64,000 nucleotides of DNA. Source: an uncultured Nitrospiraceae bacterium (GTDB lineage: Bacteria; Nitrospirota; Thermodesulfovibrionia; Thermodesulfovibrionales; UBA6898). The translations under genes and the position numbers were made by a program. The notes beneath the pieces were generated by a model, which saw only the letters and a list, made by a program, of their open reading frames with translations, ran no database searches and was not told where the DNA came from. Shown in pieces: positions 45,024 through 62,099 of the stretch. The stretch lies in NCBI GenBank assembly GCA_963811165.1, contig CAWEQH010000004.1, forward strand, positions 192,001 to 256,000. Reading direction: 5' to 3'. Each line of letters starts with the position of its first letter. Position 1 is the stretch's first letter.

Positions 45024-45088
45024 GCTTCATACCTGTTTCCACCCTTTCTGAGGAGCTCTTTTCGACTGTTTCCCTTTTATCAGTGCCT

Positions 45089-46564: not shown

Positions 46565-46652
46565 AAATTGCTTACCTCGTTCCTATTTTAACAGTCACTC
46601 ATATTACATATCAGCAAACTATACTCATCAAAAGCCTGAAGGCTCCCTTTCA

Positions 46653-47102
46653 TCACCTCCTCACAATAAGTATCGGGATTTTTGTTTCTTTGTGCATTAC
46701 GCCATAGGTGACACTGCCGAGGACCGCAACCGCCAGAGCGCTCTTCCCGTGAGAACCCATAATAATCAGACTTACCTTTGCCTTAGCAGCCTCTTTCACA
46801 ATACCCTCGACAGGGTGCCCAGCCGTTATAACAGTCTTTGATGAGACTCCATTTTTATCGCAGAGCTTCTTTATTTCTCCGGCATACCCTTCGGCAGCCT
46901 CTCTCAGATAATCCTCGATAGGCTCTATTACATGCCTTGCAGCCGTCCTCGCGGGGACTGTCTGGCCCATAAATGAGCGCTTATCAATAACGCTCAGGAC
47001 AATTACCGAGGCCTTTAACTGTTTTGCGAGGTCAACCGCATACTTGGCTGCCTTTTGAGCCGTCTTTGACCCGTCCGTCGGAACAAGAATCTTTGAAATC
47101 AT
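46653..47102 (-). CDS. Universal stress protein UspA family
   Basis: KILVPTDGS...GHP..I...LIIMGSHG...LGSVT. Confidence 0.92.
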   Translation of the reverse strand: MISKILVPTDGSKTAQKAAKYAVDLAKQLKASVIVLSVIDKRSFMGQTVPARTAARHVIEPIEDYLREAAEGYAGEIKKLCDKNGVSSKTVITAGHPVEGIVKEAAKAKVSLIIMGSHGKSALAVAVLGSVTYGVMHKETKIPILIVRR

Positions 47103-47221
47103 ATGTCCTCCTTTACTACAGTGAATTCCTCAAGGATTGGTTCATAAAAAATATTTTTTGCCTTTTCAGCTTCTTACTATAGAAGTTTGTTTATTCTTAG
47201 ACAACCTCATTCTAAGGAGAG

Positions 47222-47255
47222 AGGTTGCTGCCCCGCCGTGGCGGGGCAGCAACCT
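47222..47255. other. Perfect 16-bp inverted repeat (stable hairpin, no clear U-tract)
   Basis: AGGTTGCTGCCCCGCC-GT-GGCGGGGCAGCAACCT. Confidence 0.75.
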
Positions 47256-47297
47256 AGAGCCTATTTGAACTCCTTGATAGTCAGCTGGCTACATACT

Positions 47298-48146
47298 CTA
47301 CTTTCTATCCTGTTTTTCTTCCTCTCCTCTTCCGGGCTTTCCCCCTTGAGGTTTGGATTGTCTCGGTTGCTGGCCCTGAGTTTTTTGCTCACGTTTTTGA
47401 ACTTTCTCCTGAGGCTGTCTTTGTTGCCGCTGGACTTTCTCCTGAGGTCGTATCTGTTTCTGTTGAACCTGAGGTCTTTGCTGTAGTCTCTCTTGCTGCT
47501 TTTGCTGCACCCGAGGTTGTTTTTGCTGCCGCTGAACTTTCTCCTGAGTTTGTATCTGTTTTTGTTGAACCTGAGGTTTTCGCTGTAGTTTCTGTTGCCG
47601 CTGTTGCTGAACCTGGGGTTGCTTCTGTTGATATTGCTGTTGCCTTTGTTGTCTTAGTTCCTGTCTCTGTTGTTGCGGGCGAGGTTGATAGCTCTGTACG
47701 CCCCAGGTTCCCTGCCTTTCCCAATGCCGGTCATTTTTCCAGCTCTTCCAGTTCCGTTGAAGTCCTCGGTAAGGAATCCGTTCATAGTTCCACCGGTGCC
47801 CGTGCCAATCATGGTCCCTGTAGTATCCTCTCCAACCCGGGTCTATATCAAAATAAAAGCTTGGGACATTGTTATAATAACCCCAGCCCCGGTCATAATA
47901 ATGTGAACGATACCAGCGACCTTCCCATAGACGCCACCACCAGCCATTCCAGAAAAACAGGTCTACATCAATGTCAGGATCAACGTACACATCGCTCGTA
48001 TCAGGCATCACTATCACATCTGGTGGTGCAGCAAATTCGATGGGCGGCAGAGAAATACCAACGTTTATATTTACTGCTGCCGTCGTTGGAATAGGAACTA
48101 CAATTAGCAATGCCAAAAGCAATATTCCCAAAAATAACTTTTTCAT
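47298..48146 (-). CDS. Exported protein with Trp/Tyr-rich core and Gln-rich repetitive tail
   Basis: Signal peptide, VNINVGI.LPP, FFWNGWWWR..GRWYRS..Y; Q/K/P repeats with ~102 bp period (47461 vs 47563). Confidence 0.75.
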   Translation of the reverse strand: MKKLFLGILLLALLIVVPIPTTAAVNINVGISLPPIEFAAPPDVIVMPDTSDVYVDPDIDVDLFFWNGWWWRLWEGRWYRSHYYDRGWGYYNNVPSFYFDIDPGWRGYYRDHDWHGHRWNYERIPYRGLQRNWKSWKNDRHWERQGTWGVQSYQPRPQQQRQELRQQRQQQYQQKQPQVQQQRQQKLQRKPQVQQKQIQTQEKVQRQQKQPRVQQKQQERLQQRPQVQQKQIRPQEKVQRQQRQPQEKVQKREQKTQGQQPRQSKPQGGKPGRGEEEKQDRK

Positions 48147-48184
48147 TTTGTTGCCTCCTTTACAGATCACTGTTTTGTCTCCCA

Positions 48185-48406
48185 TCAGCCCTTCTTGTTC
48201 CCCATGACCAGCAATAGAATGCCACCTACGAGCGCGGCCCCTCCTACGATTGGCGGCAGGGGAAGCGTTTTCGTCTTATCAGCAGTCACCTGGATCGGAC
48301 CGAGATCGACGACCTTCTCCCTGGTCGTGTAGGTGATGCCCTGATACGCGAAAGCGACGATTCCTATCACGATAAGGATGATGCCTGCCACCGTGTACGT
48401 TTTCAT
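48185..48406 (-). CDS. DUF3185-like small membrane protein
   Basis: GIILIVIG...YQGITYTTREKVVDLGP..T....LPP+.G. Confidence 0.75.
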   Translation of the reverse strand: MKTYTVAGIILIVIGIVAFAYQGITYTTREKVVDLGPIQVTADKTKTLPLPPIVGGAALVGGILLLVMGNKKG

Positions 48407-48458
48407 TTTAGCTCCCCTTTCCAGTTTGTCTTAAGTCCACTTGATCCAAAGTCCATGC

Positions 48459-49229
48459 CTATTTGGACTCCTCGATAGTCATCTGGTTCTCCACGTTCTT
48501 CACGCCCTTTATGTCTTTGACGAGTTTGGCGGCCAGGTCCCTTTCGGCTGCATTCCTCGCCTTCCCACTCAACGTGACCACGCCATGCATTGTCCTGACC
48601 TTGGTGTACAGTGCACTGGTCGAGCGATGGAACAGCAACGCCATTTTGACCTGGGCGGTAATGGAGGCGTCATCGATCTGTTCAATAAATGTTCGGGATG
48701 TGCTTCCCGAGGTATCTGACACTGTCATCTCATTTTGTACGTCTTTGACCCCTTCGACATCCTTGGCGTATTCGGTCGTCAGGTCCTTCTCTGCCTGGCT
48801 CGTTGCCTCGCCCTGCAGGGTCACGATTCCGTCTTTGGTGCTGACCTCCGTCTTGGCACTCACATTCTGATGAAGCAGGAGCGCGGCCTTAACTTTCGTA
48901 CTGAGCCACGCATCCGACTTCTCGGCGGGGTGATCACCTTTGACTTCCAGCTTGTTGTCCACGCTTTTCACGCCGGGCAGCTCCGCCACGGTCTCCTGGG
49001 CCAATGATTTATGGGATTCTTCCGAGACAGTGCCCGTCAAGGTGACGACGCCATCCTTAGAATGGATTTTAATGTCATCACCCTTGAGGTAGGTCTTGAA
49101 TACATACGATTTCTCGGCGGATGCCTGGATGCGATCATCCATCGTGGCCGCCCGCACAGGCACGCCGGTCACCAACAGAACGACCGCAGCCACCATAAGC
49201 GCGGCAGAATATATTGCTTCCATTTTCAT
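48459..49229 (-). CDS. BON-domain (OsmY-like) periplasmic protein, 3 BON domains
   Basis: Signal peptide; three D..I...VK.AL...V.T.DG.VTL.G...GVK.V.N repeats. Confidence 0.9.
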   Translation of the reverse strand: MKMEAIYSAALMVAAVVLLVTGVPVRAATMDDRIQASAEKSYVFKTYLKGDDIKIHSKDGVVTLTGTVSEESHKSLAQETVAELPGVKSVDNKLEVKGDHPAEKSDAWLSTKVKAALLLHQNVSAKTEVSTKDGIVTLQGEATSQAEKDLTTEYAKDVEGVKDVQNEMTVSDTSGSTSRTFIEQIDDASITAQVKMALLFHRSTSALYTKVRTMHGVVTLSGKARNAAERDLAAKLVKDIKGVKNVENQMTIEESK

Positions 49230-49271
49230 TGTACTTTCTCCCTTAATGTTGTTGCGTTTTGTGCCGGCTTA

Positions 49272-49784
49272 TCATTTTTTCATCTTCATGCCGCGCTCAT
49301 TGTCGTACTTCATTCCCATCCCTTCCATCATCGGCTCGCCCTCCATCATCTCTCTTAACTTCTGCCGCTGCTCAGGTGTCAGTTTGGCTTTGCATTCTTC
49401 CATGGCCTTTATGTGGGAAAGCTGCATTTCGGTCTTCATCGCCTCCAACTGTTTCACTTTTGCCTCAACTGCCTTCATATCCACGGTGTCCTGCATGAGA
49501 AGGTCCTTGAGCTCAATCTGGGCAATATGCATGTCTGCCTTTCTTCTGATTGTCTCTTTCATCATCCTGCTCTTGATCTCACGCATGAAAGCCTTCTGCT
49601 GATCATCAAGGTTCAGGTCCTTAATAATTTTCGACATGTGATGTTCGGCGTCCATCATCATCCCATCCATGCCGCAGCCACACATCATTCCTGCTCCCAT
49701 CCCACGACCGCCCATGTCTCCATAAGCAAGAGCTGCAAACGCAAGGATCGAAACTGCTGCAAATATTGCTGCAAACTTTTTCAT
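49272..49784 (-). CDS. Spy/CpxP-family periplasmic chaperone
   Basis: Signal peptide, Met/Gly-rich region, LNLDDQQ and LTPEQ motifs. Confidence 0.8.
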   Translation of the reverse strand: MKKFAAIFAAVSILAFAALAYGDMGGRGMGAGMMCGCGMDGMMMDAEHHMSKIIKDLNLDDQQKAFMREIKSRMMKETIRRKADMHIAQIELKDLLMQDTVDMKAVEAKVKQLEAMKTEMQLSHIKAMEECKAKLTPEQRQKLREMMEGEPMMEGMGMKYDNERGMKMKK

Positions 49785-49910
49785 ATCAAATCTCCTTTTA
49801 ATTTTTCCGAGTGTCCGTTGGTAAATACGACGGAAGATCGAATGTATGTTATTCCCATTGAGTGCCTGTTCAGTCTCTTCACCTCTCCATATAAATCCAT
49901 GAAAGAGTTC

Positions 49911-50090
49911 CTACGACTTCGATTGTGATGAAATGGATTCCAAAAACCAGCACTCCTGCCAATTAAACCAATACTCTTTGTCCCCAGATGATATTTTAAT
50001 GATTGAACTATCTCCGCCTTTGTAGACCGCATTCCTGATTTCCATGTTTGGAATGTCCTTATCTTTCCAGTGGATAACCATGGTTGCCAT
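49911..50090 (-). CDS. Hypothetical 59-aa protein (absent from ORF track)
   Basis: AAAGGAG RBS; MATMVIHWKDKDIPNMEIRNAVYKGGDSSIIKISSGDKEYWFNWQECWFLESISSQSKS*. Confidence 0.6.
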   Translation of the reverse strand: MATMVIHWKDKDIPNMEIRNAVYKGGDSSIIKISSGDKEYWFNWQECWFLESISSQSKS

Positions 50091-50108
50091 CCCTTTCTCC
50101 TTTCGAAG

Positions 50109-50300
50109 CTACCTCCCAATACGAATCGTTGAGAGGTTTGATATGAGTCCGAAGACACTCAATAACCATATAATCACAACAATAATCACTACCACATTCA
50201 ATATTTTCTTTATGGTAGACTGCATCGGTATGTAGCTGTTAATCACCCATAGAATCACTCCAACGACAACCAACACAATGACTAATTGAATCAACGGCAT
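50109..50300 (-). CDS. Thivi_2564-like small membrane protein
   Basis: MPLIQLVIVLVVVGVILWVINSYIPM...KKILNVVV; AAAGGAG RBS. Confidence 0.75.
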   Translation of the reverse strand: MPLIQLVIVLVVVGVILWVINSYIPMQSTIKKILNVVVIIVVIIWLLSVFGLISNLSTIRIGR

Positions 50301-50368
50301 GGTATTTCTCCTTTCATGCTGCGCATTGTAGGAAAAGAGATACTGTCCCTTCTCCACAGATGCAGTCT

Positions 50369-50452: not shown

Positions 50453-50995
50453 CTACTTTTTCTCTTCGATCTTCAAGAGGCTCTTCACGGATTTCACACC
50501 CTTGATTTCCCTGATCTTTGCCACAAGCCGTGACTCGGTCTCTCTGCTGTTCACAAAACCCTGAAGAACAACATCTCCCTGTGTTGTCGTCACATCGATC
50601 TTGAAATAATGAGCATCCGGGTCTTTGATTATATCCGCATTAACCTTTGTGGTTATCATCGAGTCATCTATATATTCACCCGCTGTATCGCCCTTAAGCT
50701 TCAGTAGGCTTTTAACAGATTTCACGCCCTCGATTTGCCTGATCTTTGCTACAATCCGGTCCTCAGCCGTTCTGTCGTGTATGGAACCCTGGAGAACAAC
50801 GTTCCCATCTGTAGAGGTTACATCGATCTTTAGATACTTGGCGTCCTGGTCTTTGACGATTATGTCATTCACTTTCGTGGTAATGGTCGCGTCATCGACA
50901 TGTTCGCCTGCCGTCCTGCCCGTCATCGTGGCGCAGCCCGAAAACAAGGCCGATCCAATAACCATTAACATTGCCATAAAAATAACCTTCTTCAT
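50453..50995 (-). CDS. BON-domain lipoprotein (2 BON domains)
   Basis: Lipobox FSGC; two DD..IT+KV...IDVT+..G.VVLQG...GVKSVKS repeats. Confidence 0.88.
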   Translation of the reverse strand: MKKVIFMAMLMVIGSALFSGCATMTGRTAGEHVDDATITTKVNDIIVKDQDAKYLKIDVTSTDGNVVLQGSIHDRTAEDRIVAKIRQIEGVKSVKSLLKLKGDTAGEYIDDSMITTKVNADIIKDPDAHYFKIDVTTTQGDVVLQGFVNSRETESRLVAKIREIKGVKSVKSLLKIEEKK

Positions 50996-51685
50996 TTCTC
51001 TCCTCCTGTTTTTAGATGTGCAATCATCAGATTGCAATGTTATTAAATATAGCCAGGGCGAATTACTACCTTCACATCATTTACACAGGCCTGCGTCCCC
51101 GGCCGCAAATCTACCTATACCGATCCAGATCCCTTTCCAATGAATCGAGCCTGCGGGAAGTGTCTGCGCTCTCCTCGTACGTTGGGTATCTGCCTCCTTC
51201 CGTCATCCGCAAATAATCACGCCGAATGGAGTCCAGTCTGGATTGAAATTCCCGCTCATCTGTCAGAGGCAAACGCCTGCTGATTCTTCCATCATCAATT
51301 CTCCTTTGGAGTGCGACAATCCTGTCCCCATTAGCTGGTTCTTCAATTCTTGTGGTCCGGGACATCGCCCTGTTGATCTCATCTCCAAGCGCATCAAGTC
51401 TTCCAAGAAGGCTTTCCCACTCGTTCCGGTAGACCCTTTTTTCTCTCAGCGCCTCATAGTCTGTTCGAATACCCTTCAGTCTCGTCAGGAATATCTGGGA
51501 CTGATCGGGGGTAAGCGCGCCGCTTTTCAGCCCGTCCCCAATCTTCTCCTGGATTACAACCATCTTGTTCTCCGCATTTCTTTCATAATCCGGCCATGTC
51601 TGGGTAGTAGCGCAGCCCGAAAACAGGGCCAATCCCAAAACCATTAACACTGCCATAAAAATGACCTTCTTCATTTCTCTCCTCC
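50931..51685 (-). repeat. 76-bp direct repeat (RBS + lipoprotein signal peptide) at 50931-51006 and 51610-51685
   Basis: 70/76 identical by manual alignment; downstream mature regions unrelated. Confidence 0.85.
51111..51674 (-). CDS. Hypothetical helical lipoprotein with internal repeat
   Basis: Lipobox FSGC; repeated I.DG..S..L...F..RL..IR units. Confidence 0.7.
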   Translation of the reverse strand: MKKVIFMAVLMVLGLALFSGCATTQTWPDYERNAENKMVVIQEKIGDGLKSGALTPDQSQIFLTRLKGIRTDYEALREKRVYRNEWESLLGRLDALGDEINRAMSRTTRIEEPANGDRIVALQRRIDDGRISRRLPLTDEREFQSRLDSIRRDYLRMTEGGRYPTYEESADTSRRLDSLERDLDRYR

Positions 51686-51693
51686 CTTCTTTA

Positions 51694-51721
51694 GCAGGGG
51701 CGCATTGCAATACGCCCCTGC
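51694..51721. repeat. REP-like palindrome
   Basis: GCAGGGGCGCATTGCAATACGCCCCTGC, resembling GTAG-type REP hairpins; single copy in window. Confidence 0.45.
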
Positions 51722-51737: not shown

Positions 51738-52520
51738 CTATTCCACAATTACTTCAAAGTGAACTCTCCGGTTATTCTTCATACACGTACTGTTCTTATT
51801 AGAGGGAGTAGGCTCCTCAACACAGAGCGGCCTTGTCTTACCATAGCTGATTGTCGTCATCTTCTCGGCAGCGATACCCTGATTTGCAAGGTACTCCTTC
51901 ACTGAATTAGCCCTTCGTTCGCCGAGTGCCATATTGTAGTCTTCGGACCCATGCGCACAGGTATGTCCTTCGATCTGGACCTTTATGCCCGGGTTTTCTT
52001 TCATTGTCTTTATGTCGCTGTCGAGAATACCCGTTGCGACTTTCGTAAGGGTCGCCTTATTAAAATCGAAATGTATGTCCTCAAGGGTTATCTTCACGGC
52101 CTCGACAACCGGAGCAGGCGGAGGCGGTGTAGGCTCTGGTGCCGGTGGCGGGGTTACAGGCTCAGGCTTGGGTTCGGGCTTTACCTCAGCGACCGGTTTG
52201 GCCGGGCAAAGTGCCTTAATTTTCGCAATTGCATCATTGGCCATATCGATCGCTTCCAGCGTATGGCACGACCTGTAGACATCATAGGCCTCGTCTACCT
52301 TGGCCTTAAGCGCATTAAATTCTGTCGGACATTCCTTATCTTTGCCCGCCGCGCGAGCTTCATCCAGGGCCCGGTCTGCTTTGACTAATGCCGTGGGATA
52401 ATACAAATAGCCATCTCTGTATTCCGGTCTTTTCTCCATACCGGAACACCCAACAATTAAACTCATGGAAAAAATTGCAATTACGAACATAAACACTCTC
52501 TTTACAGTTATTGCCTGCAT
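51738..52520 (-). CDS. OmpA/Pal-family lipoprotein
   Basis: IVGC lipobox, Pro-rich linker, IHFDFNK...IEGHT...YNMALGERRA...ISYG...NRRV. Confidence 0.88.
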   Translation of the reverse strand: MQAITVKRVFMFVIAIFSMSLIVGCSGMEKRPEYRDGYLYYPTALVKADRALDEARAAGKDKECPTEFNALKAKVDEAYDVYRSCHTLEAIDMANDAIAKIKALCPAKPVAEVKPEPKPEPVTPPPAPEPTPPPPAPVVEAVKITLEDIHFDFNKATLTKVATGILDSDIKTMKENPGIKVQIEGHTCAHGSEDYNMALGERRANSVKEYLANQGIAAEKMTTISYGKTRPLCVEEPTPSNKNSTCMKNNRRVHFEVIVE

Positions 52521-52641: not shown

Positions 52642-52782
52642 TTATCCTCTCCGAAAGAGTCCTACCACCAGCACAATGACTGCTACGACTAGCAAAATAT
52701 GGATGAATCCGCCCATCGTGTAACTGCTTACCAGCCCCAACAGCCAAAGTATCACGAGTATCACAAAGATCGTCCAAATCAT
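52642..52782 (-). CDS. lmo0937-family small membrane protein (absent from ORF track)
   Basis: MIWTIFVILVILWLLGLVSSYTMGGFIHILLVVAVIVLVVGLFRRG*; AAGGAGG RBS. Confidence 0.85.
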   Translation of the reverse strand: MIWTIFVILVILWLLGLVSSYTMGGFIHILLVVAVIVLVVGLFRRG

Positions 52783-52865: not shown

Positions 52866-53207
52866 TCACCGTACCCTGCTGTCCAGGACGTCTTCTATGG
52901 CCTCCATCCCTGCCGTGTGTGACACAGTGTTGAACTGCAGTTCGGGTCGCTCGCTCAGGAGATCCATGAGCGCGAGCAACTGCCGCTGATTGTCCGTACG
53001 GAGGTGGCCCTCAAGATCTTTCTGTGTCTTCCATTCCTCCACCAGGACAAAGGTGTTTGCGTCTTCTACGTCTTCATAGAGACGATAACTCATGCAGCCC
53101 CTTTCGACCCGCACGGGTTCGATTATCCCCCGCATCGTTTCCAAAAGATCATTCCGCCTTTCAGGCCGGACAATCATTCTTAATGTTACAAGTATCTTCG
53201 TGTCCAT
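52866..53207 (-). CDS. ABM-domain (putative quinol monooxygenase-like) protein
   Basis: ERGCMSYRLYED...FVLVEEWKTQKDLEGH. Confidence 0.8.
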   Translation of the reverse strand: MDTKILVTLRMIVRPERRNDLLETMRGIIEPVRVERGCMSYRLYEDVEDANTFVLVEEWKTQKDLEGHLRTDNQRQLLALMDLLSERPELQFNTVSHTAGMEAIEDVLDSRVR

Positions 53208-53251: not shown

Positions 53252-53434
53252 TTAATGACGTTCTTCGTGCTCATTGTGTCCTCCGCGCTCTTGCTCGCCA
53301 TGCCCTCCGCGTTCCTGCTCACCTTGCCTCCCACGGTCATGCTCATCGTACCCGCCGCGACGGTCCCAAAAACAGCCTGACAGGGTCGACATACACATAA
53401 GAAGCACAAGAGATGCTGCGATCTTCCTTATCAT
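53252..53434 (-). CDS. Small charged lipoprotein
   Basis: Lipobox LSGC, E/R/G/H-rich tail, AAAGGAG RBS; first gene after promoter copy A. Confidence 0.65.
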   Translation of the reverse strand: MIRKIAASLVLLMCMSTLSGCFWDRRGGYDEHDRGRQGEQERGGHGEQERGGHNEHEERH

Positions 53435-53486
53435 TTTTCTCTCCTTTCGATAAGAACATGCGTTGGTGTTTGCTATCGTATTGAAT

Positions 53487-53502
53487 AGCAGAATGTGTGC
53501 CG
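53487..53502 (-). promoter_or_regulatory. Sigma54 -24/-12 promoter (copy A)
   Basis: CGGCACACATTCTGCT, GG-N10-GC. Confidence 0.75.
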
Positions 53503-53601
53503 AGCCGTTGTTGACAGGGCAGGAGTCTCTATGATGTTGAAAATATTGAACTTTCAGCGAAAGCTACGACATGGGAATGATACTGCGAGGAGTCCCGACT
53601 T

Positions 53602-53632
53602 CTGATATATCAGGAGACTCCTGATATATCAG
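53602..53632. promoter_or_regulatory. Double palindromic putative upstream activator sequence (copy A)
   Basis: CTGATATATCAG-GAGACTC-CTGATATATCAG. Confidence 0.75.
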
Positions 53633-53735
53633 GTATTCTTCTTGCTATTTCGATGCCCAGTCTTTGCATCCTCGATTCAAGCGTTATGGGATTGATGTCT
53701 AAAAACATCTGCAGCACCGTTCTTTCCGCCTATTC

Positions 53736-55007
53736 CTACTTTTCCGTTAGTTGCATATAAACTAAAATCACGGCAGCAAAGGTCATAAGAACTAATGTCG
53801 CAAATCCAAGAATATTAGAAGTTTTTCCGTTTGTATTTTTGCCCATTATTTTTTTGTTGTTGGAAATGTGAAGAATGATTGCAATTAAGACAGGTGCAGT
53901 CAATCCATAAAGAATGGCTGAATAAATCAGCGCCTTAATTGGTGAAATACCAATGTAATTCAACGATAGCCCCAAGATTAGTGAAATGACGATGATGATA
54001 TAAAATGCTTTTGCGTTGTGAAATTTTTTATCCAGTCCTTCTTTCCAGCCAAATGTTTCGGTGATAATATAAGAAAGTGAACCACTCAGAACGGGAATGG
54101 CCAAAAGTCCGGTTCCGATGACACCGACGGCAAAAAGTATATATGCTGAATTTCCCGCTAATGGTTTCAATGCCTTGGCCGCTTGTTCAACGGTGTCAAT
54201 CTGATGAATACCCCCTTTAAATAATACCGACCCTGTCGTAAGAATGATAAAGAACATGACAAGATTTGAAAATAACATTCCGAAATCGACATCTTCTTGC
54301 ATGTCTTGCATTATTCTTTTGTTTACTATTAAATGTCTTTTCTTCTTTTTCATATCTTCTACTTCCATCGTTGCCTGCCAAAAGAAAAGATAGGGTGAGA
54401 TGGTAGTCCCAAGGATGGCAACAAGAATGCTGATAAAGTCCTTGTCAAACTTTATTGTCGGGATAAACGCGGCTTTCAAAACTGCTACCCAATCTTGTTT
54501 ATATAAAAAAGGAACAATCAGATAGACTAAAAGAACGATGCAGAGATATTTCAGAACAGCAGCAATTTTTTGATAAGGCAGATAAATAATTAACACTAAA
54601 AGGATGATGGTGAAAACAATGCTGAAATACGTTGCCTGAATGGAAGGGAACAATAGATTGCCTACTGCTCCCATTCCTGCAATGTCGGCGCCGATGTTCA
54701 TTACAATGGCAGGAAAACTAAACAACAGCATTAAATACAAAACAGGTTTTGAATAATAAGTTTTAAGCGTTCCTGCCAAACCGTGAGAAGTAACCAGGCC
54801 AATTCTCGCACACATTTCCTGAATGGAAGCCATGAGTGGAAATGTAATAAGTGCAGTCCAGAGAGTTGAAAGTCCGTATGCAGCACCTGCCTGTGAGTAG
54901 GTTGCAATGCCCGAAGGGTCATCATCGCTTGCGCCTGTAACAAGCCCGGGTCCAAGTATTTTCCAAAAACGAAATAGTCTATTGGAAGTATTTTTCTTAT
55001 TGTTCAT
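53736..55007 (-). CDS. NRAMP-family divalent metal transporter (AT-rich)
   Basis: LGPGLVTGASDDDPSGIATYSQAGA, GTTISPYLFFWQ, ~11 TM helices. Confidence 0.88.
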   Translation of the reverse strand: MNNKKNTSNRLFRFWKILGPGLVTGASDDDPSGIATYSQAGAAYGLSTLWTALITFPLMASIQEMCARIGLVTSHGLAGTLKTYYSKPVLYLMLLFSFPAIVMNIGADIAGMGAVGNLLFPSIQATYFSIVFTIILLVLIIYLPYQKIAAVLKYLCIVLLVYLIVPFLYKQDWVAVLKAAFIPTIKFDKDFISILVAILGTTISPYLFFWQATMEVEDMKKKKRHLIVNKRIMQDMQEDVDFGMLFSNLVMFFIILTTGSVLFKGGIHQIDTVEQAAKALKPLAGNSAYILFAVGVIGTGLLAIPVLSGSLSYIITETFGWKEGLDKKFHNAKAFYIIIVISLILGLSLNYIGISPIKALIYSAILYGLTAPVLIAIILHISNNKKIMGKNTNGKTSNILGFATLVLMTFAAVILVYMQLTEK

Positions 55008-56278
55008 TATTCCCTCGAAGAGTCAGACATGTCCGCAGCCTCGGACGGACTGCTCTCCTCCTTCCGCCGATCGTCCGACATCTCGACGGCGATCGCAGCG
55101 GCCTGTTCCACAGGCACGCCCTCTGTACGGCGCTCGTACTCATTCTCAGCGCGCTCGTCACCGACGCGCTGCTCCACATCTGCAACCTGCTCCTGCTGAC
55201 CAGGAAGTTCGACGCGAAGCTCCTCTATGAGCATCATGATCGCTGCTGCGACAGGAAGCGCCAGAAGTGCGCCGAGGATCCCCATCAGCGTCCCTCCCGC
55301 AAGGAGCGCGATGAGAACGACGGACGACGGAAGGCGAAGAGACCGTCCATAAATGCGGGGAACGAGAACGCGGCTCTCGAACTCCTCGTACGCGAGCATG
55401 GTCAGCAGGACGACGGCCACGACGACCGGGCCACGCGGCAGCGCCGCAAGGACCATGGGTCCTATCGAGAGGAAGGCACCGATGTACGGCAGGACATCTG
55501 CAATGCCAGCAAACACCGCAAGCGCCATCGCGTATGGCACACCGCACGCCACCAGGAGGACGAACGAAAAGGCCGCAATGAGAAAGCACGTGATCAGCTG
55601 ACCGCGCATGTAAGCGCCGACGATCGTCTCCAGATTCATCATGACGCGGGCGAGGCGGATATGGTGCGAGCGGGGGACGACCGAGAAAAGCGCGCCACGA
55701 AGCCGGTCGCGGTCGATCATGATGTAGAGGGCGAGAAAGATGGCGCTCGCCCCGTATGCGGTGATCTCGAAGATGCGCATCGAGAAGTTGAAGGCCGTTG
55801 AGCTGATTGCTCTCAAAAGAGCGTCGTACTTGACGTTCCGCAGCCATTCCGCGAGCGGCGCTGTCAGGTTGGAGAGGGCGAGATAATCCGCAAGGCGTGC
55901 GCGAAACTCGGGTTCCTGCTCGACCAGCGCAGAGGCCTGCGTCACCAGCGACGGGATTGTCAGCGTCAAGGCCAGAGTCGCGGCGACGAAGAGGAGTGTG
56001 AAGACGACGGCGATCGCAAGGCTGCGTCTGACACGCCGCGCCTCCATCCAGCTGACGGCCGGACTCATCGTCCCGACGATGAGAAGAGCGATGACGAGCA
56101 CCAGAAAGACCGGCCAAAGCCGGACCAGCAGCCACAGACAGGCCACGACGAGGATGAGCTGGATCATCGTCGCAAACGATATCTCGAAACGCACCACACG
56201 CGTTTTCTTGCCCGCCGAAGGCTGGCGCTCAGAGAGCGGCGGAACACCGGCCGCACCGGGCTTGATTTCTTTTTTCAC
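55007..56278 (-). CDS. AI-2E-family transporter (GC-rich)
   Basis: GAYMRGQL, LPYIGA, E...LVPRIYG..LRL, GILGALLALP. Confidence 0.88.
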   Translation of the reverse strand: MKKEIKPGAAGVPPLSERQPSAGKKTRVVRFEISFATMIQLILVVACLWLLVRLWPVFLVLVIALLIVGTMSPAVSWMEARRVRRSLAIAVVFTLLFVAATLALTLTIPSLVTQASALVEQEPEFRARLADYLALSNLTAPLAEWLRNVKYDALLRAISSTAFNFSMRIFEITAYGASAIFLALYIMIDRDRLRGALFSVVPRSHHIRLARVMMNLETIVGAYMRGQLITCFLIAAFSFVLLVACGVPYAMALAVFAGIADVLPYIGAFLSIGPMVLAALPRGPVVVAVVLLTMLAYEEFESRVLVPRIYGRSLRLPSSVVLIALLAGGTLMGILGALLALPVAAAIMMLIEELRVELPGQQEQVADVEQRVGDERAENEYERRTEGVPVEQAAAIAVEMSDDRRKEESSPSEAADMSDSSRE

Positions 56279-56318
56279 GTTCTCTTCCTCCGCGTCACGG
56301 TTGCCCAGCGAGCCCGGA

Positions 56319-56370
56319 TCACTCGTCCCTCAGGGCCTAGATCGGATTCAGCGCTGCTGGCTTCCGGGCC
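56319..56370 (-). pseudogene. 3' remnant of a MacB/FtsX-type ABC permease
   Basis: Translates ARKPAALNPI*ALRDE*, the typical PA.KAA.L.P+EALR.E C-terminus with an internal stop. Confidence 0.55.
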
Positions 56371-56775
56371 TCAGGCTCCAGTAACCCAGCGATGTGCTGC
56401 AACCTCTGCGGCATCAGCGTCGGCTTTTGTCTTATGGACCGTTCCGTCAGGATGATTCGGAGGAGTGTAAATCGTGTATAGTTTGAGAGGTTTGTCTGAA
56501 GATGCATTGATTACATTATGGTATGTGCCGGCAGGCACCACAACCGCATCACCATCACCTATAACATGTTCCTCCTTGCCGTCAAAGACAAACTTAGCCT
56601 TGCCTTCTTCTACCCGGAAGAACTGATCAACGTTCTGGTGTACTTCGTTTCCGATTTCTTCCTTGGGCTGCAAACACATCACCACAAGCTGGCTATGCTT
56701 GCCCGTAAATAACACCTGCCGAAAATAACCGTTCTGGAGGGTTGTTTGCTCAATTGGTCCAACATAGGGTTTCAT
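56371..56775 (-). CDS. Cupin-domain protein
   Basis: QLVVM.L...EIG.EVH..VDQFFRVEEG...VPAGT.HNVIN...LYTIY.PP.H. Confidence 0.88.
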   Translation of the reverse strand: MKPYVGPIEQTTLQNGYFRQVLFTGKHSQLVVMCLQPKEEIGNEVHQNVDQFFRVEEGKAKFVFDGKEEHVIGDGDAVVVPAGTYHNVINASSDKPLKLYTIYTPPNHPDGTVHKTKADADAAEVAAHRWVTGA

Positions 56776-56858
56776 TGTCCATGCCTCCTTTTTTTAAAAA
56801 AAGAATGGTTTCCATTCTCATGGCTTTTCTTTTCGAAGATTTATTCCATACTATTTAC

Positions 56859-56874
56859 AGCATGAGTTGTGCCA
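56859..56874 (-). promoter_or_regulatory. Sigma54 -24/-12 promoter (copy B)
   Basis: TGGCACAACTCATGCT, GG-N10-GC. Confidence 0.8.
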
Positions 56875-56973
56875 ATACCGGTAATGAAATAAAGGGTTCT
56901 CTAAGACCGTGAAAACATTGAACCTTCAGAGAAGACTACGATGGGGAAACGATACGGTGAAAGGTGCTGCCTT

Positions 56974-57004
56974 CTGATATATCAGGAGACTCCTGATATA
57001 TCAG
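56974..57004. promoter_or_regulatory. Double palindromic putative upstream activator sequence (copy B)
   Basis: CTGATATATCAG-GAGACTC-CTGATATATCAG. Confidence 0.75.
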
Positions 57005-57163
57005 GCATTCTTACTTATTCGGATGCCCAGTCTTTGCATCCTCTATTCAAGCGTTATCGCGGCGCCCTTTTGTTTTCTCGTATACCACGGTCAATCAGCC
57101 GTAACCGGGGGAGAGTCAAAATAGACTCTTGATAAAATGAGTAATTTATTGTCCCCTGTAATA

Positions 57164-57319
57164 TTACCTGCCAATTAGGATAAAGGCGCCGGCAGCAATA
57201 GCGAGAATATCCAGCAAAGTACGTATCGTGAGAATTCCGCCTCCCAGCAGACCCGTCAGGCCGATCAAGATGAGCCAGATTCCCAGCAAAAGCATTCCAA
57301 TATTCTTTGTCACTGTCAT
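57164..57319 (-). CDS. Small two-TM membrane protein, 51 aa (absent from ORF track)
   Basis: AGGAGGTG RBS; MTVTKNIGMLLLGIWLILIGLTGLLGGGILTIRTLLDILAIAAGAFILIGR*. Confidence 0.75.
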   Translation of the reverse strand: MTVTKNIGMLLLGIWLILIGLTGLLGGGILTIRTLLDILAIAAGAFILIGR

Positions 57320-57660
57320 GTTATTCACCTCCTAAAATAAATATATTTCGACCATGTCATCTTATGTGACTGGCTTACCTAACCTTTAATTAATTTATAC
57401 ACCAAAGAGCACGATTCGCCAACAGTTCGAGAAAAATTGTGACAAATGGTTTTTTCTTGCTACACTGAAAATATATTTGCTAACCCTCTTTTACAGGGAT
57501 AGGCAAAGCGCCTTTGCCTGTCCCTGGTAGAAGAGTTTCCCGAGTGAAAGAGGCGCGTAACTGCATGATAAGAGTCGGGCCCGACATGGCGCTGAGCATG
57601 GCACCGCCAGAAATTCCCGCATGGCTTGCTCCAGGCGGCGAGCGAGCCCATCTATCCTGA

Positions 57661-59418
57661 TCAGTGACGGTCAGCACCGCGCCACTCAACAGCTCCGAAC
57701 CCAGGCTTGCCAAGCAAAGTGTAAACGAGGCTGACGGTCCCCGTCGTCTGGTGACTGGCAGCCCGGTCGGGATATCGCGCATCTCGTGAGGACGCGATGT
57801 ATTGGATCCCGAGGGCGTGACGTCCGTAAATGCGAACGGCAAACCCCGTGTTCAAGCGCTCGATGGTCTCCCTTCCCCCCGGGTCCGCGCCACCCACGCC
57901 AGTCACATAATATGCGCGTCCCGTTAAGTCGAACATGGCCCTGTCGCCAAGGATGAGGCGGAGCCCAAGGAGCCCCTGCGGGGCGACGCCGTAGTGGTAG
58001 TCGCGTTCACCCACTTGGGTGACATTACCTGCCGCACCGTACCCGACACCCCCGAGGACCGAGCCCTGGAGCGCTACCGCTCGCGCGAGCCACCATTGAA
58101 AGGTCGTACCGAGAGAGACGGAGGTGCTTGACACGCGGAAGATGTGCGGCGATATATAGTCATAGCCGCCATAGAGGCCCCATATCCCGCGATAGGAATT
58201 GCCGGCCTCGTAGTCCTTTCCGAGGAGGAGGCCCCGGATCATGACGTCATCAAAAGGGTTACGTGCGTTGCCGAGGCTGATGAACTCAAAATGGAAGTAG
58301 TCGAAAGGACGCGTGTAGTTATAGCCGGGCTTCCCGGGAAGCCCGTAGGCCATGGAGAAGTCCGCTGTCGCCTCGGTCTTTTCACCGGTGCCGGAGCCGC
58401 CCAGGTTATTCAGATGCGAATTCAGGCTTGCGCCGAGCTGCAGGCGCCAGAAGGTGGCCGGATTGTGGCTGGGAAAGACGGGCTTGAACCGGTCTCCAAA
58501 GACAAGGCGATTGAAACCCGTTGGTGGTGAGAGCACCGCCGCGCCCAGCTCGCGCCAGAGCCCGGGTTTGTCGCCATCGCCCTCGAGCACCAGGCTGGCC
58601 ATCCGGAAGAGCACCTCCCCGAAGAAGCTCCCGCCAATGCCGCTGGCGATCTGGTCATTGATGGATGGGTGCGTGGTCTCTCCTCCCGTTTCCCATAGAA
58701 AGCTGCCTGCGTTGCTGTAGAGGAGCGACTCCCAGTAGTTAAGACCCGCCGATCGCGCGAATCCATGATAAATGGATCCCTGATATGGATGCGCGAACTG
58801 GTTCATGGCGAAGGAGTCCTGATCAACTCCCCAAGAGCCGTGAAGGATGTGGTCCCGGAAGGTTGACAGGTTCGTGTCGTAGACTTTTTTCCCTCCCTCT
58901 ACAGAGTTAGAGTAGGCGAGCCGGTCGTACCCGTTGAGGAGAAGGATGAAGCCCGGGATTTCGAGGGCTGGGATGAGGTAGCTCCTGCGTGTCCCCCTCT
59001 CCCAAGACAGGGCCGATGTCGGCGCCTCAGGCTTTTCCTTCACCCACGCTTCCCCGCCCATAGAGATATTTACGGTCCGGTTCGGGTTCATATCGGAAAG
59101 CTCGATCGCATCCGGTGCCGACATATCCCTATATCCAGGGTTTGACGCTTCAAGGGTATAATTCCCAGGGGCTGGAATACCCACTGAATAGTTACCCAAC
59201 GCATCAGTAGTCCCTGTTCCTGCCAACTTACCGGTGCTTACATCTTTTACCGTGAAGATTACCCCTTGAATGTCCTGATTGTTTAACCTTACCGAACCTG
59301 AGATACCGCCTCCTTGGGCAAAGGCCGGGCTACTAACAGTGATTACTATACCCACGTGAAACGCCACAAGAATCGCCTTAAATATTTTTCTCGCACGGTA
59401 TAAGATTTCCTCAAACAT
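57661..59418 (-). CDS. Exported protein: carboxypeptidase-regulatory-like domain + DUF3943 + probable beta-barrel
   Basis: AFA signal site; ISGSV...TTDALGNY.....PGNYTLEAS.PGY; D.DSFAMNQFAHPYQG...LWE...E...PSIND. Confidence 0.72.
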   Translation of the reverse strand: MFEEILYRARKIFKAILVAFHVGIVITVSSPAFAQGGGISGSVRLNNQDIQGVIFTVKDVSTGKLAGTGTTDALGNYSVGIPAPGNYTLEASNPGYRDMSAPDAIELSDMNPNRTVNISMGGEAWVKEKPEAPTSALSWERGTRRSYLIPALEIPGFILLLNGYDRLAYSNSVEGGKKVYDTNLSTFRDHILHGSWGVDQDSFAMNQFAHPYQGSIYHGFARSAGLNYWESLLYSNAGSFLWETGGETTHPSINDQIASGIGGSFFGEVLFRMASLVLEGDGDKPGLWRELGAAVLSPPTGFNRLVFGDRFKPVFPSHNPATFWRLQLGASLNSHLNNLGGSGTGEKTEATADFSMAYGLPGKPGYNYTRPFDYFHFEFISLGNARNPFDDVMIRGLLLGKDYEAGNSYRGIWGLYGGYDYISPHIFRVSSTSVSLGTTFQWWLARAVALQGSVLGGVGYGAAGNVTQVGERDYHYGVAPQGLLGLRLILGDRAMFDLTGRAYYVTGVGGADPGGRETIERLNTGFAVRIYGRHALGIQYIASSRDARYPDRAASHQTTGTVSLVYTLLGKPGFGAVEWRGADRH

Positions 59419-59520
59419 ATTCCTACGCTTTCTCCTTCCGCCATTACCGTCAATCCCATATATGCGACATGGTAATTATTGCGTTATGGTATTGTTATTT
59501 CCTTACAGTCCCTAACCATA

Positions 59521-59558
59521 ATTCAGGAGGGGGCGACAAGTATTCACCCCCTCCGAAT
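59521..59558 (-). terminator. Terminator-like hairpin after CHRD gene
   Basis: GGAGGGGG...CCCCCTCC stem flanked by ATTC/GAAT; weak U-tract. Confidence 0.45.
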
Positions 59559-59582
59559 ATCATCAAGGACCGGTAATCGGTC

Positions 59583-60044
59583 TTATTTGATCTGCCCGCG
59601 TATCTCTCCGTTGGGATACTTATCCGTGTGAACATTAAGGTAGGCATTCCCCTTCTTTATTTGCTTAAAGAGATCTTCTACGGATTTGCCCATCATTGGC
59701 CCCATCAGTTCCTTTTTGGTAATAGTGCCCTCGGCGAGTGTGCCGCTGAATTTACCGGCTTTTTTATCGTTGGTAATAACAGCCACAGGCGGACCGTTTT
59801 CGCCCTTTTTCCCCAGATGGATATGTGCAGCGGTCACATTTTCGATATCGGAAACCGTTACATAGTAACTCAGTGCTTTTTCGTCTTTGATGAGTGTAAA
59901 AGAGGCATCGCCCTTCGCCATTGTCTCTACCGCGGGAACACTTTCGCTCCCTGATAGAATTGCCTTGAAGCTCTTGTCCTTTGCAAAGCTGGATGTTGCG
60001 AGGCCAACGACTAACAAGAATATGATCAAATACAGTTTTTTCAT
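59583..60044 (-). CDS. CHRD-domain exported protein
   Basis: Signal peptide; LSGSESVPAV, TAAHIHLG..GENGPPV, YLNVHT..YPNGEIRGQ. Confidence 0.88.
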   Translation of the reverse strand: MKKLYLIIFLLVVGLATSSFAKDKSFKAILSGSESVPAVETMAKGDASFTLIKDEKALSYYVTVSDIENVTAAHIHLGKKGENGPPVAVITNDKKAGKFSGTLAEGTITKKELMGPMMGKSVEDLFKQIKKGNAYLNVHTDKYPNGEIRGQIK

Positions 60045-60100
60045 AATTATCCTCCGTTTTATTTTCAAGGTGTGTTTAGATGCATACGTCCGCAAGCGGT

Positions 60101-60271
60101 CTACTGAACTTCGCCTGCGGGCATGGACTCTAATCTGCTTATCAGACCCGTGAGTGTCTTTTTCTCAATTTTGACGCCTTTTTCTTCGCCCATCTTCTCT
60201 ACTTCTTTCTGATAATGCTGCAGGGCGGTCATTATCGCAACAGCCTCGGAATTATTCAATTTCAGATTCAT
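60101..60271 (-). CDS. Hypothetical 56-aa helical protein (absent from ORF track)
   Basis: AAAGGAG RBS; MNLKLNNSEAVAIMTALQHYQKEVEKMGEEKGVKIEKKTLTGLISRLESMPAGEVQ*; first gene after promoter copy C. Confidence 0.6.
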   Translation of the reverse strand: MNLKLNNSEAVAIMTALQHYQKEVEKMGEEKGVKIEKKTLTGLISRLESMPAGEVQ

Positions 60272-60324
60272 CGTATTACTCTCCTTTCTCTTCGAACGTT
60301 TTATTTATTACACACTAGTTTAAA

Positions 60325-60340
60325 AGCATACGTTGTGCCA
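60325..60340 (-). promoter_or_regulatory. Sigma54 -24/-12 promoter (copy C)
   Basis: TGGCACAACGTATGCT, GG-N10-GC. Confidence 0.8.
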
Positions 60341-60440
60341 AGACCTGTGTTGAGAGAAAGGGTTCTCTAGGACTTTGAAATCATTGGAACTTCAGCGACG
60401 GCTACGATAAGGGGAATGATACTTTGAAAGGTGCTGCCTT

Positions 60441-60471
60441 CTGGTATATCAGGAGACTCCTGATATATCAG
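60441..60471. promoter_or_regulatory. Double palindromic putative upstream activator sequence (copy C), overlapping the activator stop codon
   Basis: CTGGTATATCAG-GAGACTC-CTGATATATCAG (one mismatch). Confidence 0.72.
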
Positions 60472-62099
60472 GTATTCTTCTTTTCTCTTTGGATGCCCAG
60501 TTTTTGCATTCTCGATCCAAGCGTCTTTGGATTGATGCCTAAAACCTCTGCTGCACCGCCCTTGCCGCTTACCCGCCAGCCCGTGGTGTTCAGCGTTTCG
60601 ATAATCTGCTGTTTCTCTGCCTCCTCGAGGGTTCTCAACTGGCCTGTCTTTGATTCCTCAATCTTAGGTACATCCACATGAAGCACCGGTCCGGTGGCTA
60701 TGATCATCGCACGCTCAATAATGTTCCTCAGTTCCCTTATGTTGCCCGGCCAGGGATAGGTTTGCAGGGTTTCAACGCCCTTCTGCGGTATCGATTCGAT
60801 CCGCTTGCCCATCCTCTTGCCGAAGTCCTGAACAAAAGACCATACAAGCGGCAATATGTCCTCCCGACGCTCACGAAGAGGCGGCACGATAATCTGAAAA
60901 ACGTTCAAACGGTAGTAAAGGTCTTCCCGGAATCCGCCCTTGCTGACCAACCCGGCAAGATCGCGGTTCGTCGCTGAAATGATTCTGACGTCGACCTTCA
61001 CGGTCCGGGGGCTGCCCAGGCGCTCAAACTCACCGCTCTCCAGTACCCGAAGCAGCTTGGCCTGGAGCTCAAGCGGCAGGGCGTCTATCTCATCCAGGAA
61101 AATCGTTGAAGCATCCGCAAGCTCAAAACGGCCTATTTGCTTCGATAGCGCACCGGTATAAGCGCCTTTCTCGCGGCCGAAGAGTTCACTTTCGATGAGG
61201 GTCGGAGGCAGGGCGGCACAGTTGACTTTAATCATAAGCCGCCCCTTGCGGGCACTCAGGCCATGGATCGCATGAGCGAGCAGTTCCTTTCCTGTTCCCG
61301 TCTCCCCCTGGATCAAAACCGTCGAGTCTGTCGGCGCCACTTGTTCTATCTGCTTCAAAACGGTCCTGATCGCTTCACTGTTGCCAACAATATCCTTATG
61401 TGAGTGTATCAGATTAATTTCTTCCCGAAGGTAGAGATTCTCCTCACGCAATTTGCTTTTTAGCTCCCTGATTTCGATAAGCGTTCCCCGGAGTGACTCC
61501 TCTGCCTTCTTGCGTTCCTCAATTTCCCTCAGGAGCTGCTGGTTTGCTTCGACTAAATCTTCAGTCCGTTCCTTCACGCGCAGGTCCATCTCATCATATG
61601 CCTTCCGGAGCGCCTCCTCTGCCTGTTTGCGCAGAGTGATGTCGCGGATGTTGCACTGGATAATTTTCTCCTTATCGACGAGGTAGACATTACTGACAAA
61701 TTCGACATCGATGAGATGACCATCTTTTGTTTCAAGCGGCAAATGTTCGTACCGCACATAACCTTTCGTCTGCAATTCTGTAAATCGGAGTTTGGATGCT
61801 GCGATGTCGCTGAAAGGCCCGATTTCCCAAAGTTTCTTCCCCAGAAAATCCTTATGCGAGTAGCCCAGCATCTCTAACAGGAATGGGTTAATGTCGAGGA
61901 TCTGTCCCGTGTCTGCATCGAGAAGAACTATCCCGTCTTGAGCGGTTTCAAAGAGCCTCCGGTAACGGGTTTCCGATCTCTTCAGCGCCTCATCTGCCTT
62001 CCTGCATTTGGCTGCTTCTGCTCCCAAATCCTCAATAGACTGATGCGGTTCTGCCGATTCATTTATCCGTTGCTCTTTTGTTTTGTCTTTATAATTCAT
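60468..62099 (-). CDS. PAS-domain sigma54-dependent transcriptional activator (PAS-coiled coil-AAA-HTH)
   Basis: PAS (YRRLFETAQDGI...RDIT), GETGTGKE, GAYTGA, FLDEI, WPGNIREL, AAEVLGINPKTL.SRM HTH. Confidence 0.93.
   Translation of the reverse strand: MNYKDKTKEQRINESAEPHQSIEDLGAEAAKCRKADEALKRSETRYRRLFETAQDGIVLLDADTGQILDINPFLLEMLGYSHKDFLGKKLWEIGPFSDIAASKLRFTELQTKGYVRYEHLPLETKDGHLIDVEFVSNVYLVDKEKIIQCNIRDITLRKQAEEALRKAYDEMDLRVKERTEDLVEANQQLLREIEERKKAEESLRGTLIEIRELKSKLREENLYLREEINLIHSHKDIVGNSEAIRTVLKQIEQVAPTDSTVLIQGETGTGKELLAHAIHGLSARKGRLMIKVNCAALPPTLIESELFGREKGAYTGALSKQIGRFELADASTIFLDEIDALPLELQAKLLRVLESGEFERLGSPRTVKVDVRIISATNRDLAGLVSKGGFREDLYYRLNVFQIIVPPLRERREDILPLVWSFVQDFGKRMGKRIESIPQKGVETLQTYPWPGNIRELRNIIERAMIIATGPVLHVDVPKIEESKTGQLRTLEEAEKQQIIETLNTTGWRVSGKGGAAEVLGINPKTLGSRMQKLGIQREKKNT

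Follow-up and report, generated by a model that had tools for sequence, protein, structure and literature searches.

Repeated paired-palindrome and sigma-54 promoter cassettes ahead of four gene blocks in an uncultured Nitrospiraceae bacterium, probably descended from the 3′ junction of an activator gene

The window analysed here is a stretch of 64,000 nucleotides from an uncultured Nitrospiraceae bacterium (GenBank assembly GCA_963811165.1, contig CAWEQH010000004.1, positions 192,001 to 256,000 of the forward strand). It carries three colinear copies, A, B and C, of a cassette of about 150 bases that combines a paired palindrome with a sigma-54 promoter box, and copy C lies at the 3′ end of a gene for a sigma-54 activator. 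In each copy, CTGATATATCAG-N7-CTGATATATCAG is followed by an A/T-rich block resembling a site for integration host factor (IHF) and then by a GG-N10-GC (-24/-12) box. The three copies, located by a first-pass annotation of the window, were borne out by blastn, which aligned them at 79-84% identity (E 1e-38 to 1e-54). The activator and the parts of the cassettes are as follows.

60468..62099, minus strand: activator with PAS, sigma-54 AAA+ and Fis-type helix-turn-helix (HTH) domains, 543 amino acids, FhlA-like C-terminal half, GAYTGA loop; its stop lies inside palindrome C
60441..60471, unstranded: copy C, paired palindrome (12-7-12), mismatch at 60444, predicted enhancer
60368..60389, minus strand: copy C, conserved A/T-rich block, IHF-like
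60325..60341, minus strand: copy C, -24/-12 box TTGGCAC-N6-TGC, predicted start near 60314
57005..57054, minus strand: copy B, remnant of an activator 3′ end, 50 bp, in-frame TAG and 3-bp deletion, 41/50 identical to the resident gene
56974..57004, unstranded: copy B, paired palindrome, exact
56902..56922, minus strand: copy B, conserved A/T-rich block, IHF-like
56859..56875, minus strand: copy B, -24/-12 box, predicted start near 56848
56801..56815, minus strand: copy B, second fossil, the first codons of the 26-28-residue peptide gene that follows copy D (14/15 bases match D, compared by eye), cut off before the cupin gene
53633..53732, minus strand: copy A, remnant of an activator 3′ end, 100 bp, +1 and -1 indels, 83/99 identical to the resident gene
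53602..53632, unstranded: copy A, paired palindrome, exact
53530..53550, minus strand: copy A, conserved A/T-rich block, IHF-like
53487..53503, minus strand: copy A, -24/-12 box TCGGCAC-N6-TGC, predicted start near 53476

The activator stop codon occupies bases 2-4 of palindrome C on the minus strand. The first G of the GG-N10-GC box was found at 53501 (A), 56873 (B) and 60339 (C), 116, 116 and 117 bp from the central base of the palindrome; the spacing of 117/117/118 given in the first-pass annotation differs in counting convention only, and the minus-strand starts that it predicted (53476, 56848 and 60314) are the positions we derived from the -24/-12 boxes. The decay that it described in the coding ends of A and B is likewise present, as is the palindrome in all three copies, with the single mismatch of copy C going unmentioned there. 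We identified a fourth copy, D, 3.5 kb past the window (palindrome G000:C4:259490-259520, cassette 259334-259521), which has no activator remnant and is followed by genes for a 27-residue membrane peptide, CsbD, DUF3309 and a CsbD-like protein; the frame upstream of D ends at the palindrome TGA and carries what we take to resemble an IPTL-CTERM tail. The predicted start of D lies near G000:C4:259363 on the minus strand. The predicted regulon, proposed earlier with three promoters, would thus have four here. The -24/-12 boxes of all four copies score 11-12 of 13. Copies C and D are 84% identical over 193 bp and A and B 81% over 162 bp (blastn), with unrelated first genes, and behind A, B and D alike there is a ribosome-binding-like sequence with an intact gene. 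No other 12-N7-12 site within 5 mismatches occurs in the 3.66-Mb genome, and a model built from the spacer only matched exactly the same four. A single half-site with one mismatch was also seen at G000:C4:325158-325169, about 150 bp downstream of rpoN, and may be there by chance.

We then characterized the predicted reader of the site. The activator matched the sigma-54 AAA+ family PF00158 (E 6.5e-70), with Walker A, Walker B and arginine finger read in its translation, and its C-terminal Fis-type HTH matched PF02954 (E 2.9e-09). A search of solved structures returned generic NtrC-family HTHs only. The genome carries rpoN (TIGR02395, 442 bits, over the cut-off) and IHF/HU genes, as well as 24 activator-like loci, among which this HTH occurs only in the resident gene; none of the other HTHs in the genome matched it at E<=1e-5.

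We searched 317 genomes of the order for the site. The pattern was found, with up to 3 mismatches allowed, in 39 of them, at up to 8 sites per genome, while the reversed pattern matched none of the 317, which excludes a chance origin. A scan of a genome collection returned at least 127 stretches, mostly named Thermodesulfovibrionia or Nitrospirae; the other carriers among the stretches listed were Desulfurivibrionaceae and further Deltaproteobacteria, together with a single Nitrospinota record and some weak matches outside these groups. The named carriers included some Desulfobacterota and one cultured species; Hydrosulfovibrio ferrireducens is a cultured carrier. The geometry was scored on 137 distinct sites within 5 mismatches, after removal of six shifted duplicates from 143 rows, and the box formed no part of the search patterns used to find them. 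In agreement with the fixed palindrome-promoter spacing proposed from the window, 128 of the 137 sites had a GG-N10-GC box 114-119 bp from the palindrome, and four of the nine sites without one lacked DNA on one side. Two cassettes were two-way, a single palindrome being flanked on either side by a box at 115-116 bp (L023:1195-1225 and L077:2501-2531). At four further loci (L187, L190, L195 and L205, from G002, G006, G034 and G067) a G+C-rich inverted-repeat insert of 40-155 bp lies between the activator stop and the position of the palindrome.

Given that sites selected by the pattern bias any measure of conservation, two other selections were used, one by protein and one by spacer. For the first, we took the 35 places in 30 genomes that matched the last 60 residues of the activator at >=67%. 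At 28 of these the pair (<=4 mismatches) was found in the next 300 bp, together with a box at all except two, one being a contig end and the other rearranged. Among 26 protein-selected loci the mean pairwise identity was 0.94 for the palindrome arms and 0.66 for the spacer, and among the 22 loci with full coding sequence it was 0.68 for the spacer and 0.665 for fourfold-degenerate sites. Thus drift in the spacer runs at roughly the synonymous rate, unlike that in the palindrome, as the first-pass annotation had expected when it claimed that the motif is better conserved than the duplicated sequence around it. The copies in this genome follow the same pattern, with palindromes 97-100% and spacers 60-86% identical. 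One block of the spacer, 40-60 bp before the -24 G, was kept at 0.8-0.9. An IHF-like match with at most one mismatch to the consensus was present in 58 of 131 spacers, compared with 23.5 in shuffles, and the best match lay 40-42 bp before the first G in 64 of the 131. For the second selection, the spacer-only model was run on 80 chosen genomes (39 motif-positive and 41 others) at E < 1e-5. Its 129 matches were accompanied by a palindrome with <=3 mismatches in 121 cases, with 4 mismatches in two and damaged in six, one of the damaged palindromes being in G091, a genome without a close activator; the model was trained on palindrome-bearing cassettes, so that old decayed ones may escape it.

The co-occurrence of the motif with this activator clade, another expectation of the first-pass annotation, was found in two collections. 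The site (<=3 mismatches) was present in 28 of the 30 genomes with a close HTH and in 11 of the 287 others, and the remaining two close-HTH genomes carry versions with 4 mismatches or degenerate. In a metagenome set of 79 loci chosen by protein, eight of which lacked downstream DNA, 21 of 30 close relatives had the pair, compared with 0 of 41 distant ones. More distant HTHs in G001, G003, G030, G305 and G006 were followed at the same spot by a CCGAWAT-TCGG-type pair and a -24/-12 box. These sister sites were read by eye at 12 genome and 20 metagenome loci, some of which have no such pair, and the switch of site with HTH is a clade-level observation rather than a statistical test. In the metagenome reading (20 of the 79 loci), seven distant FhlA-like activators (L343, L345, L348, L362, L365, L367 and L368) each had, just after the stop, two palindromes in tandem with another sequence. 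Such tandem pairs suggest that the layout may be family-wide, with an HTH-site code that may be readable.

To trace how the copies arose, we compared their flanks. The spacer is homologous across all cassettes, which means that they descend from one junction and not from independent gains of the motif. Activator homology upstream of 131 cassettes was scored with the shuffled maximum as threshold: it was gene-length, or ran to the end of the available DNA, in 33, a long part in one, a remnant of 9-231 bp in 52 and absent in 43, and two had too little DNA. The continuous range of remnant lengths fits duplication followed by deletion up to a protected site and does not fit an element with fixed ends. 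Copy B was trimmed on the other side too, where the first codons of D's peptide gene are kept ahead of the cupin. The portable cassette of the first-pass annotation is supported in that a promoter was probably duplicated ahead of gene blocks, but it has no fixed left end and is better described as duplicated and then trimmed than as a mobile element. A fixed breakpoint or site-specific insertion was ruled out by the continuous remnant lengths and by the lack of an integrase-family match within about 100 kb.

The earlier interpretation, whose computable predictions all held, is supported as a whole, but the triplication from the activator's own 3′ end that it proposed has to be refined as to age. 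Remnant A is 83/99 identical to the resident gene and 86/99 and 84/99 identical to two foreign activators, and for remnant B the resident gene (41/50) was surpassed by 13 of 21 foreign activators. Mean cassette identity was 0.653 within genomes and 0.646 between them. Since the remnants match foreign genes as well or better and identities within and between genomes are about equal, the copies are old, and a recent triplication from junction C was ruled out. The nearest cassette lay in the same genome for 13 of 80 (3 expected), indicating that some duplications are recent, and the nearest neighbours of A are foreign. Pairwise identities were used here in place of a tree of 98 cassettes, which was mostly unresolved (3 of 95 inner branches starred) and whose automatic labels of activator adjacency, being unreliable, were left out of the counts; as sequence data they appear as compatible with horizontal exchange of blocks as with ancient duplication.

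Taken together, we consider it likely that the repeat serves the activator at 60468-62099 as enhancer, DNA-bending site and sigma-54 promoter, and that it was copied ahead of four gene blocks by duplication and trimming of the 3′ junction. At the level of DNA sequence, this reading is founded on the geometry, the selective conservation of palindrome and box, the linkage to the HTH clade, the homology of the spacers and the decayed activator ends. The predicted part comprises binding, looping, start sites and operon extent. Two activator dimers would bind the two 12-bp palindromes, whose centres are 19 bp apart and which would lie about 141 bp upstream of the start; IHF would introduce a bend at the A/T-rich block, some 55-75 bp upstream; and the PAS domain would relieve inhibition so that the AAA+ ring opens the sigma-54 complex at -24/-12. 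The distance of about 141 bp from palindrome centre to predicted start falls within the 80-150 bp enhancer range. The 3′ junction of the activator gene would have been duplicated and then trimmed ahead of the four blocks.

Several observations weigh against this reading. The pair does not adjoin the gene in 7 of the 35 protein-selected places, four of which carry one 0.6-3.5 kb further on, nor in 9 of the 30 close metagenome loci. No close activator was found in 11 site-bearing genomes, all of them drafts; three of these keep broken activator ends and eight have not even a broken one. The genomes are kin, so that counts of co-occurrence overstate the link. The IHF match is modest in this genome, with 1-2 mismatches over 9 fixed positions of the consensus. 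The palindrome can fold as a hairpin of 14 pairs with a 3-base loop (-18.9 kcal/mol), and a terminator-like flag was raised on the plus (antisense) strand at all three copies of the window. The stress label given to the targets below comes from gene families and not from expression. Finally, the loop of the resident activator reads GAYTGA and not GAFTGA; among 25 orthologs we counted 16 GAFTGA, 6 GAFTGS, 2 GAYTGA and 1 GAYTGS, and the GAYTGA variant is reported to be permissive and still active (PMC6615313).

We weighed four other explanations against these data. It is unlikely, in our view, that the cassettes are real sigma-54 enhancer-promoters read by a different protein, with the location at the stop codon only historical. 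The genome has other candidates among its 24 activator-like loci, and the eight drafts with sites and no trace of a close activator would fit such a reader, but the site varies according to which HTH lineage the gene before it belongs to, no other HTH of the genome matches at the threshold used, and G091, which has no close activator, has lost the palindrome of its cassette. Very unlikely is a palindrome that acts mainly as an RNA hairpin, a terminator or a protector of upstream 3′ ends, carried along with the promoter. The fold itself and the terminator-like flag would fit this, as would the high variability of the three central bases, the compensation of 25 of the 72 deviating pairs in distinct sites and the position of every cassette at the end of an upstream co-oriented block. 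On the other hand, the stem is disrupted by 29 of the 72 deviating pairs. A U-tract is missing from the transcribed strand, where the 10 bases that come next hold 0-2 T in 122 of 131 cassettes, and the plus-strand T-tail, which D lacks, is simply the activator's lysine codons read in reverse. The sister-clade pairs, moreover, are direct repeats that do not form this stem, and a hairpin leaves the 114-119-bp spacing and the two-sided promoters unexplained. The palindrome may have a side role as a hairpin.

We give slightly less credence still to the palindrome being a site of site-specific recombination or the end of a mobile element that shuffles gene blocks with the promoter as cargo. The 12-7-12 geometry is reminiscent of tyrosine-recombinase sites; the distribution is patchy (39 of 317 genomes), the order of neighbouring genes differs by reshuffling from one relative to another, and several junctions fall at or inside the left arm of the palindrome. 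The continuous lengths of the remnants, from 9-231 bp up to whole genes, speak against it, as does the symmetry of the 7-bp centre itself (GA-N3-TC). The nearest of 20 integrase-family matches is broken and lies about 100 kb away, no tRNA was found in the window or the next 18 kb, and no transposase was seen among the open reading frames read by eye. The least credible explanation holds A, B and D to be defunct, neutral remains of local duplications. The decayed coding remnants would fit it, as would the damage to a few cassettes elsewhere (6 of 129). Against it, the palindromes are 97-100% identical while the spacers of the same copies are at 60-86%, the palindromes of A and B are exact, the spacing is held within 1 bp, and each copy leads into a ribosome-binding-like sequence and an intact gene.

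Under the enhancer-promoter reading, the predicted target blocks in the window are composed of the following genes.

60101..60271, minus strand: first gene behind C, 56-residue protein of no family, also first behind two cassettes of foreign genomes
59583..60044, minus strand: CHRD-domain protein, block C
57661..59418, minus strand: DUF3943 exported protein, co-oriented, putative block member
56371..56775, minus strand: cupin, block B
55007..56278, minus strand: AI-2E family transporter, block B
53736..55007, minus strand: NRAMP-like transporter, block B, stop abutting remnant A
53252..53434, minus strand: first gene behind A, 60-residue lipoprotein-like protein of no family
52866..53207, minus strand: ABM monooxygenase-domain protein, block A
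52642..52782, minus strand: lmo0937/DUF5670 membrane protein, block A
51738..52520, minus strand: OmpA-domain lipoprotein, block A
50453..51037, minus strand: lipoprotein with two BON domains, block A
43143..50357, minus strand: further co-oriented genes (Thivi_2564, LTXXQ/Spy-like, three-BON, Usp, RNB, FtsH), with presumed read-through from promoter A

At the score used, none of the genes at 43143..50357 showed a separate -24/-12 box. A sigma-70 scan gave 28 sites where shuffles gave 19.2 +/- 4.3; one of the 28 lies at 62134-62106, in front of the activator, and the result is too weak to use. A search of 42000-64000 with Rfam gave a single match, far below its gathering score. Within block A, an 88-bp repeat with 89% identity (50928-51015 and 51607-51694) spans the ribosome-binding region and the lipoprotein signal peptide in two genes that differ elsewhere, a reuse of a leader inside the block. 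Outside the blocks, MlaE- and MlaF-like genes (62332-63142; 63150 onward), divergent from the activator, appear frameshift-split, by assembly error or decay, and the co-oriented run left of block A holds two glycogen-phosphorylase-like paralogs 15 kb apart (23940-24766 and 38940-39775, annotated by eye).

Across genomes, the first genes behind 110 cassettes fell into 48 clusters led by small lipoproteins, followed by the 26-28-residue membrane peptide (19), ABM (9), CsbD (8) and DUF3309 (4); genes were called by a simple start-codon rule, and some calls are wrong. Usp and BON genes are typical of general stress regulons, and both occur here beside CsbD, DUF3309, CHRD, cupin, AI-2E, NRAMP, ABM, lmo0937, OmpA, RNB and FtsH. 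An entericidin-like gene was seen by eye behind a cassette in a relative, and the EcfG general stress response controls both csbD and ecnAB directly (PMC7083833). The targets thus resemble general-stress genes by family, from which a role in stress may be proposed. We also searched the genome, which is 95% complete, for an alternative sigma factor, and none of its eight sigma-70 proteins passed the RpoS or SigB cut-off; five of its sigma-70 proteins are RpoD-like paralogs (L218-L222), none over the RpoS cut-off. SigB and RpoS are the alternative sigma-70 factors of general stress regulons.

The sensor of the activator varies between its orthologs. Among 25 full-length proteins we found PAS in 11, a receiver domain in 8 and no domain at E 1e-8 in 6, so that, judged from domain content, the sensor appears to be swapped between genomes. 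A PAS domain 63% identical to that of the resident activator was seen in another gene of this genome (G000:C10:967169-967573), which would be consistent with sensor shuffling. In G233 a pair of same-strand kaiB genes immediately precedes a close activator (L178, G233:C46:1844-2443); KaiB occurs in 5 of 50 relatives and adjoins the activator only in G233. A Kai input was set aside for the present genome, in which no KaiB was found.

The arrangement was compared with described systems. Enhancers 80-150 bp upstream and IHF-aided looping are standard for sigma-54 (PMC4987338, PMC7175178), and promoters of NtrC, FhlA and PspF type share with the cassette a -24/-12 box, paired palindromes in that range, an AAA+ activator with C-terminal HTH and, more tentatively, an IHF-like site between. 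The cassette site is not among the sites tabulated there; here, moreover, the enhancer overlaps the activator stop and the target promoters are homologous over the whole 150 bp. FhlA was the best NCBIfam match of the activator, scoring 400.5 bits against a family cut-off of 830 and covering the AAA+ and HTH half, but the activator has PAS instead of the formate-sensing N-terminal region, a different site and no hydrogenase targets. The closest published case found was DVU2359 of Desulfovibrio vulgaris Hildenborough, a one-component regulator with an FhlA-like HTH (19/26 HTH residues identical by eye), the most similar of 36 listed for D. vulgaris and the only match in the supplements of PMC4641369. 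Its predicted sites share the core GA-W-AT-W-TC with the cassette (compared by eye) and differ in the flanks, AC...GT compared with CT...AG here (PMC4641369). For DVU2359 that paper gives three predicted sites and one divergent non-coding RNA target and reports no duplicated cassettes, whereas four co-oriented protein-coding targets are predicted here. DVU3305, a 'general stress' sigma-54 regulator, has a different HTH in a three-component system, and the cassette motif had no match in the supplements of its study (PMC3333781).

Putative mobile promoters are likewise highly similar upstream regions before unrelated genes, within and between genomes (PMC3575422). By the measure used for them (>=80% over 50 nt upstream of non-paralogous genes), C/D at 84% and A/B at 81% qualify. 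In contrast to mobile promoters, whose function and mobilisation that study leaves open (PMC3575422), the donor can be identified here from fossil ends, a cognate regulator is predicted and selection on the motif was measured. Compared with miniature inverted-repeat transposable elements, insertion sequences or recombination cassettes, the repeat has no fixed ends, and the integrase-family search gave nothing nearby. The EcfG regulon shares csbD, and its ecnAB can be likened to the entericidin-like gene of the relative (PMC7083833); compared with sigma-70 general stress regulons (SigB, RpoS and EcfG) the promoters here are of sigma-54 type, and the likeness proposed is one of function only.

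These data make it likely that one activator gained stress-type targets by copying its own downstream promoter. The transcription mechanism is textbook, and the reuse of promoters has been described before (PMC3575422); what is new is the motif, the clade and an unusually clear fossil record, and we found no description of the motif, the clade or their origin in the open literature (PubMed Central and bioRxiv). The growth of regulons is usually viewed as sites arising singly, or as the capture of promoters from an unknown donor. Here the donor can be read from the DNA, since 52 of 131 cassettes keep 9-231 bp of the activator gene end, and regulon growth by promoter duplication becomes traceable and datable. 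The work also provides a predicted cognate activator-site pair and a natural series of HTH and site variants for studies of specificity. More tentatively, and in our view somewhat less likely than not, these anaerobes may depend on sigma-54, rather than on an alternative sigma-70 factor, for their general stress response. An enhancer on the activator's own stop would turn each duplication of the gene end into a target promoter with a fossil tag, a swap of the N-terminus (PAS, receiver, none, or the kaiB placement of G233) would rewire the regulon, and the 31-bp site would have stayed fixed across several families and two or more phyla. The cassettes would then mark a candidate sigma-54-based general stress response in these poorly studied anaerobes.

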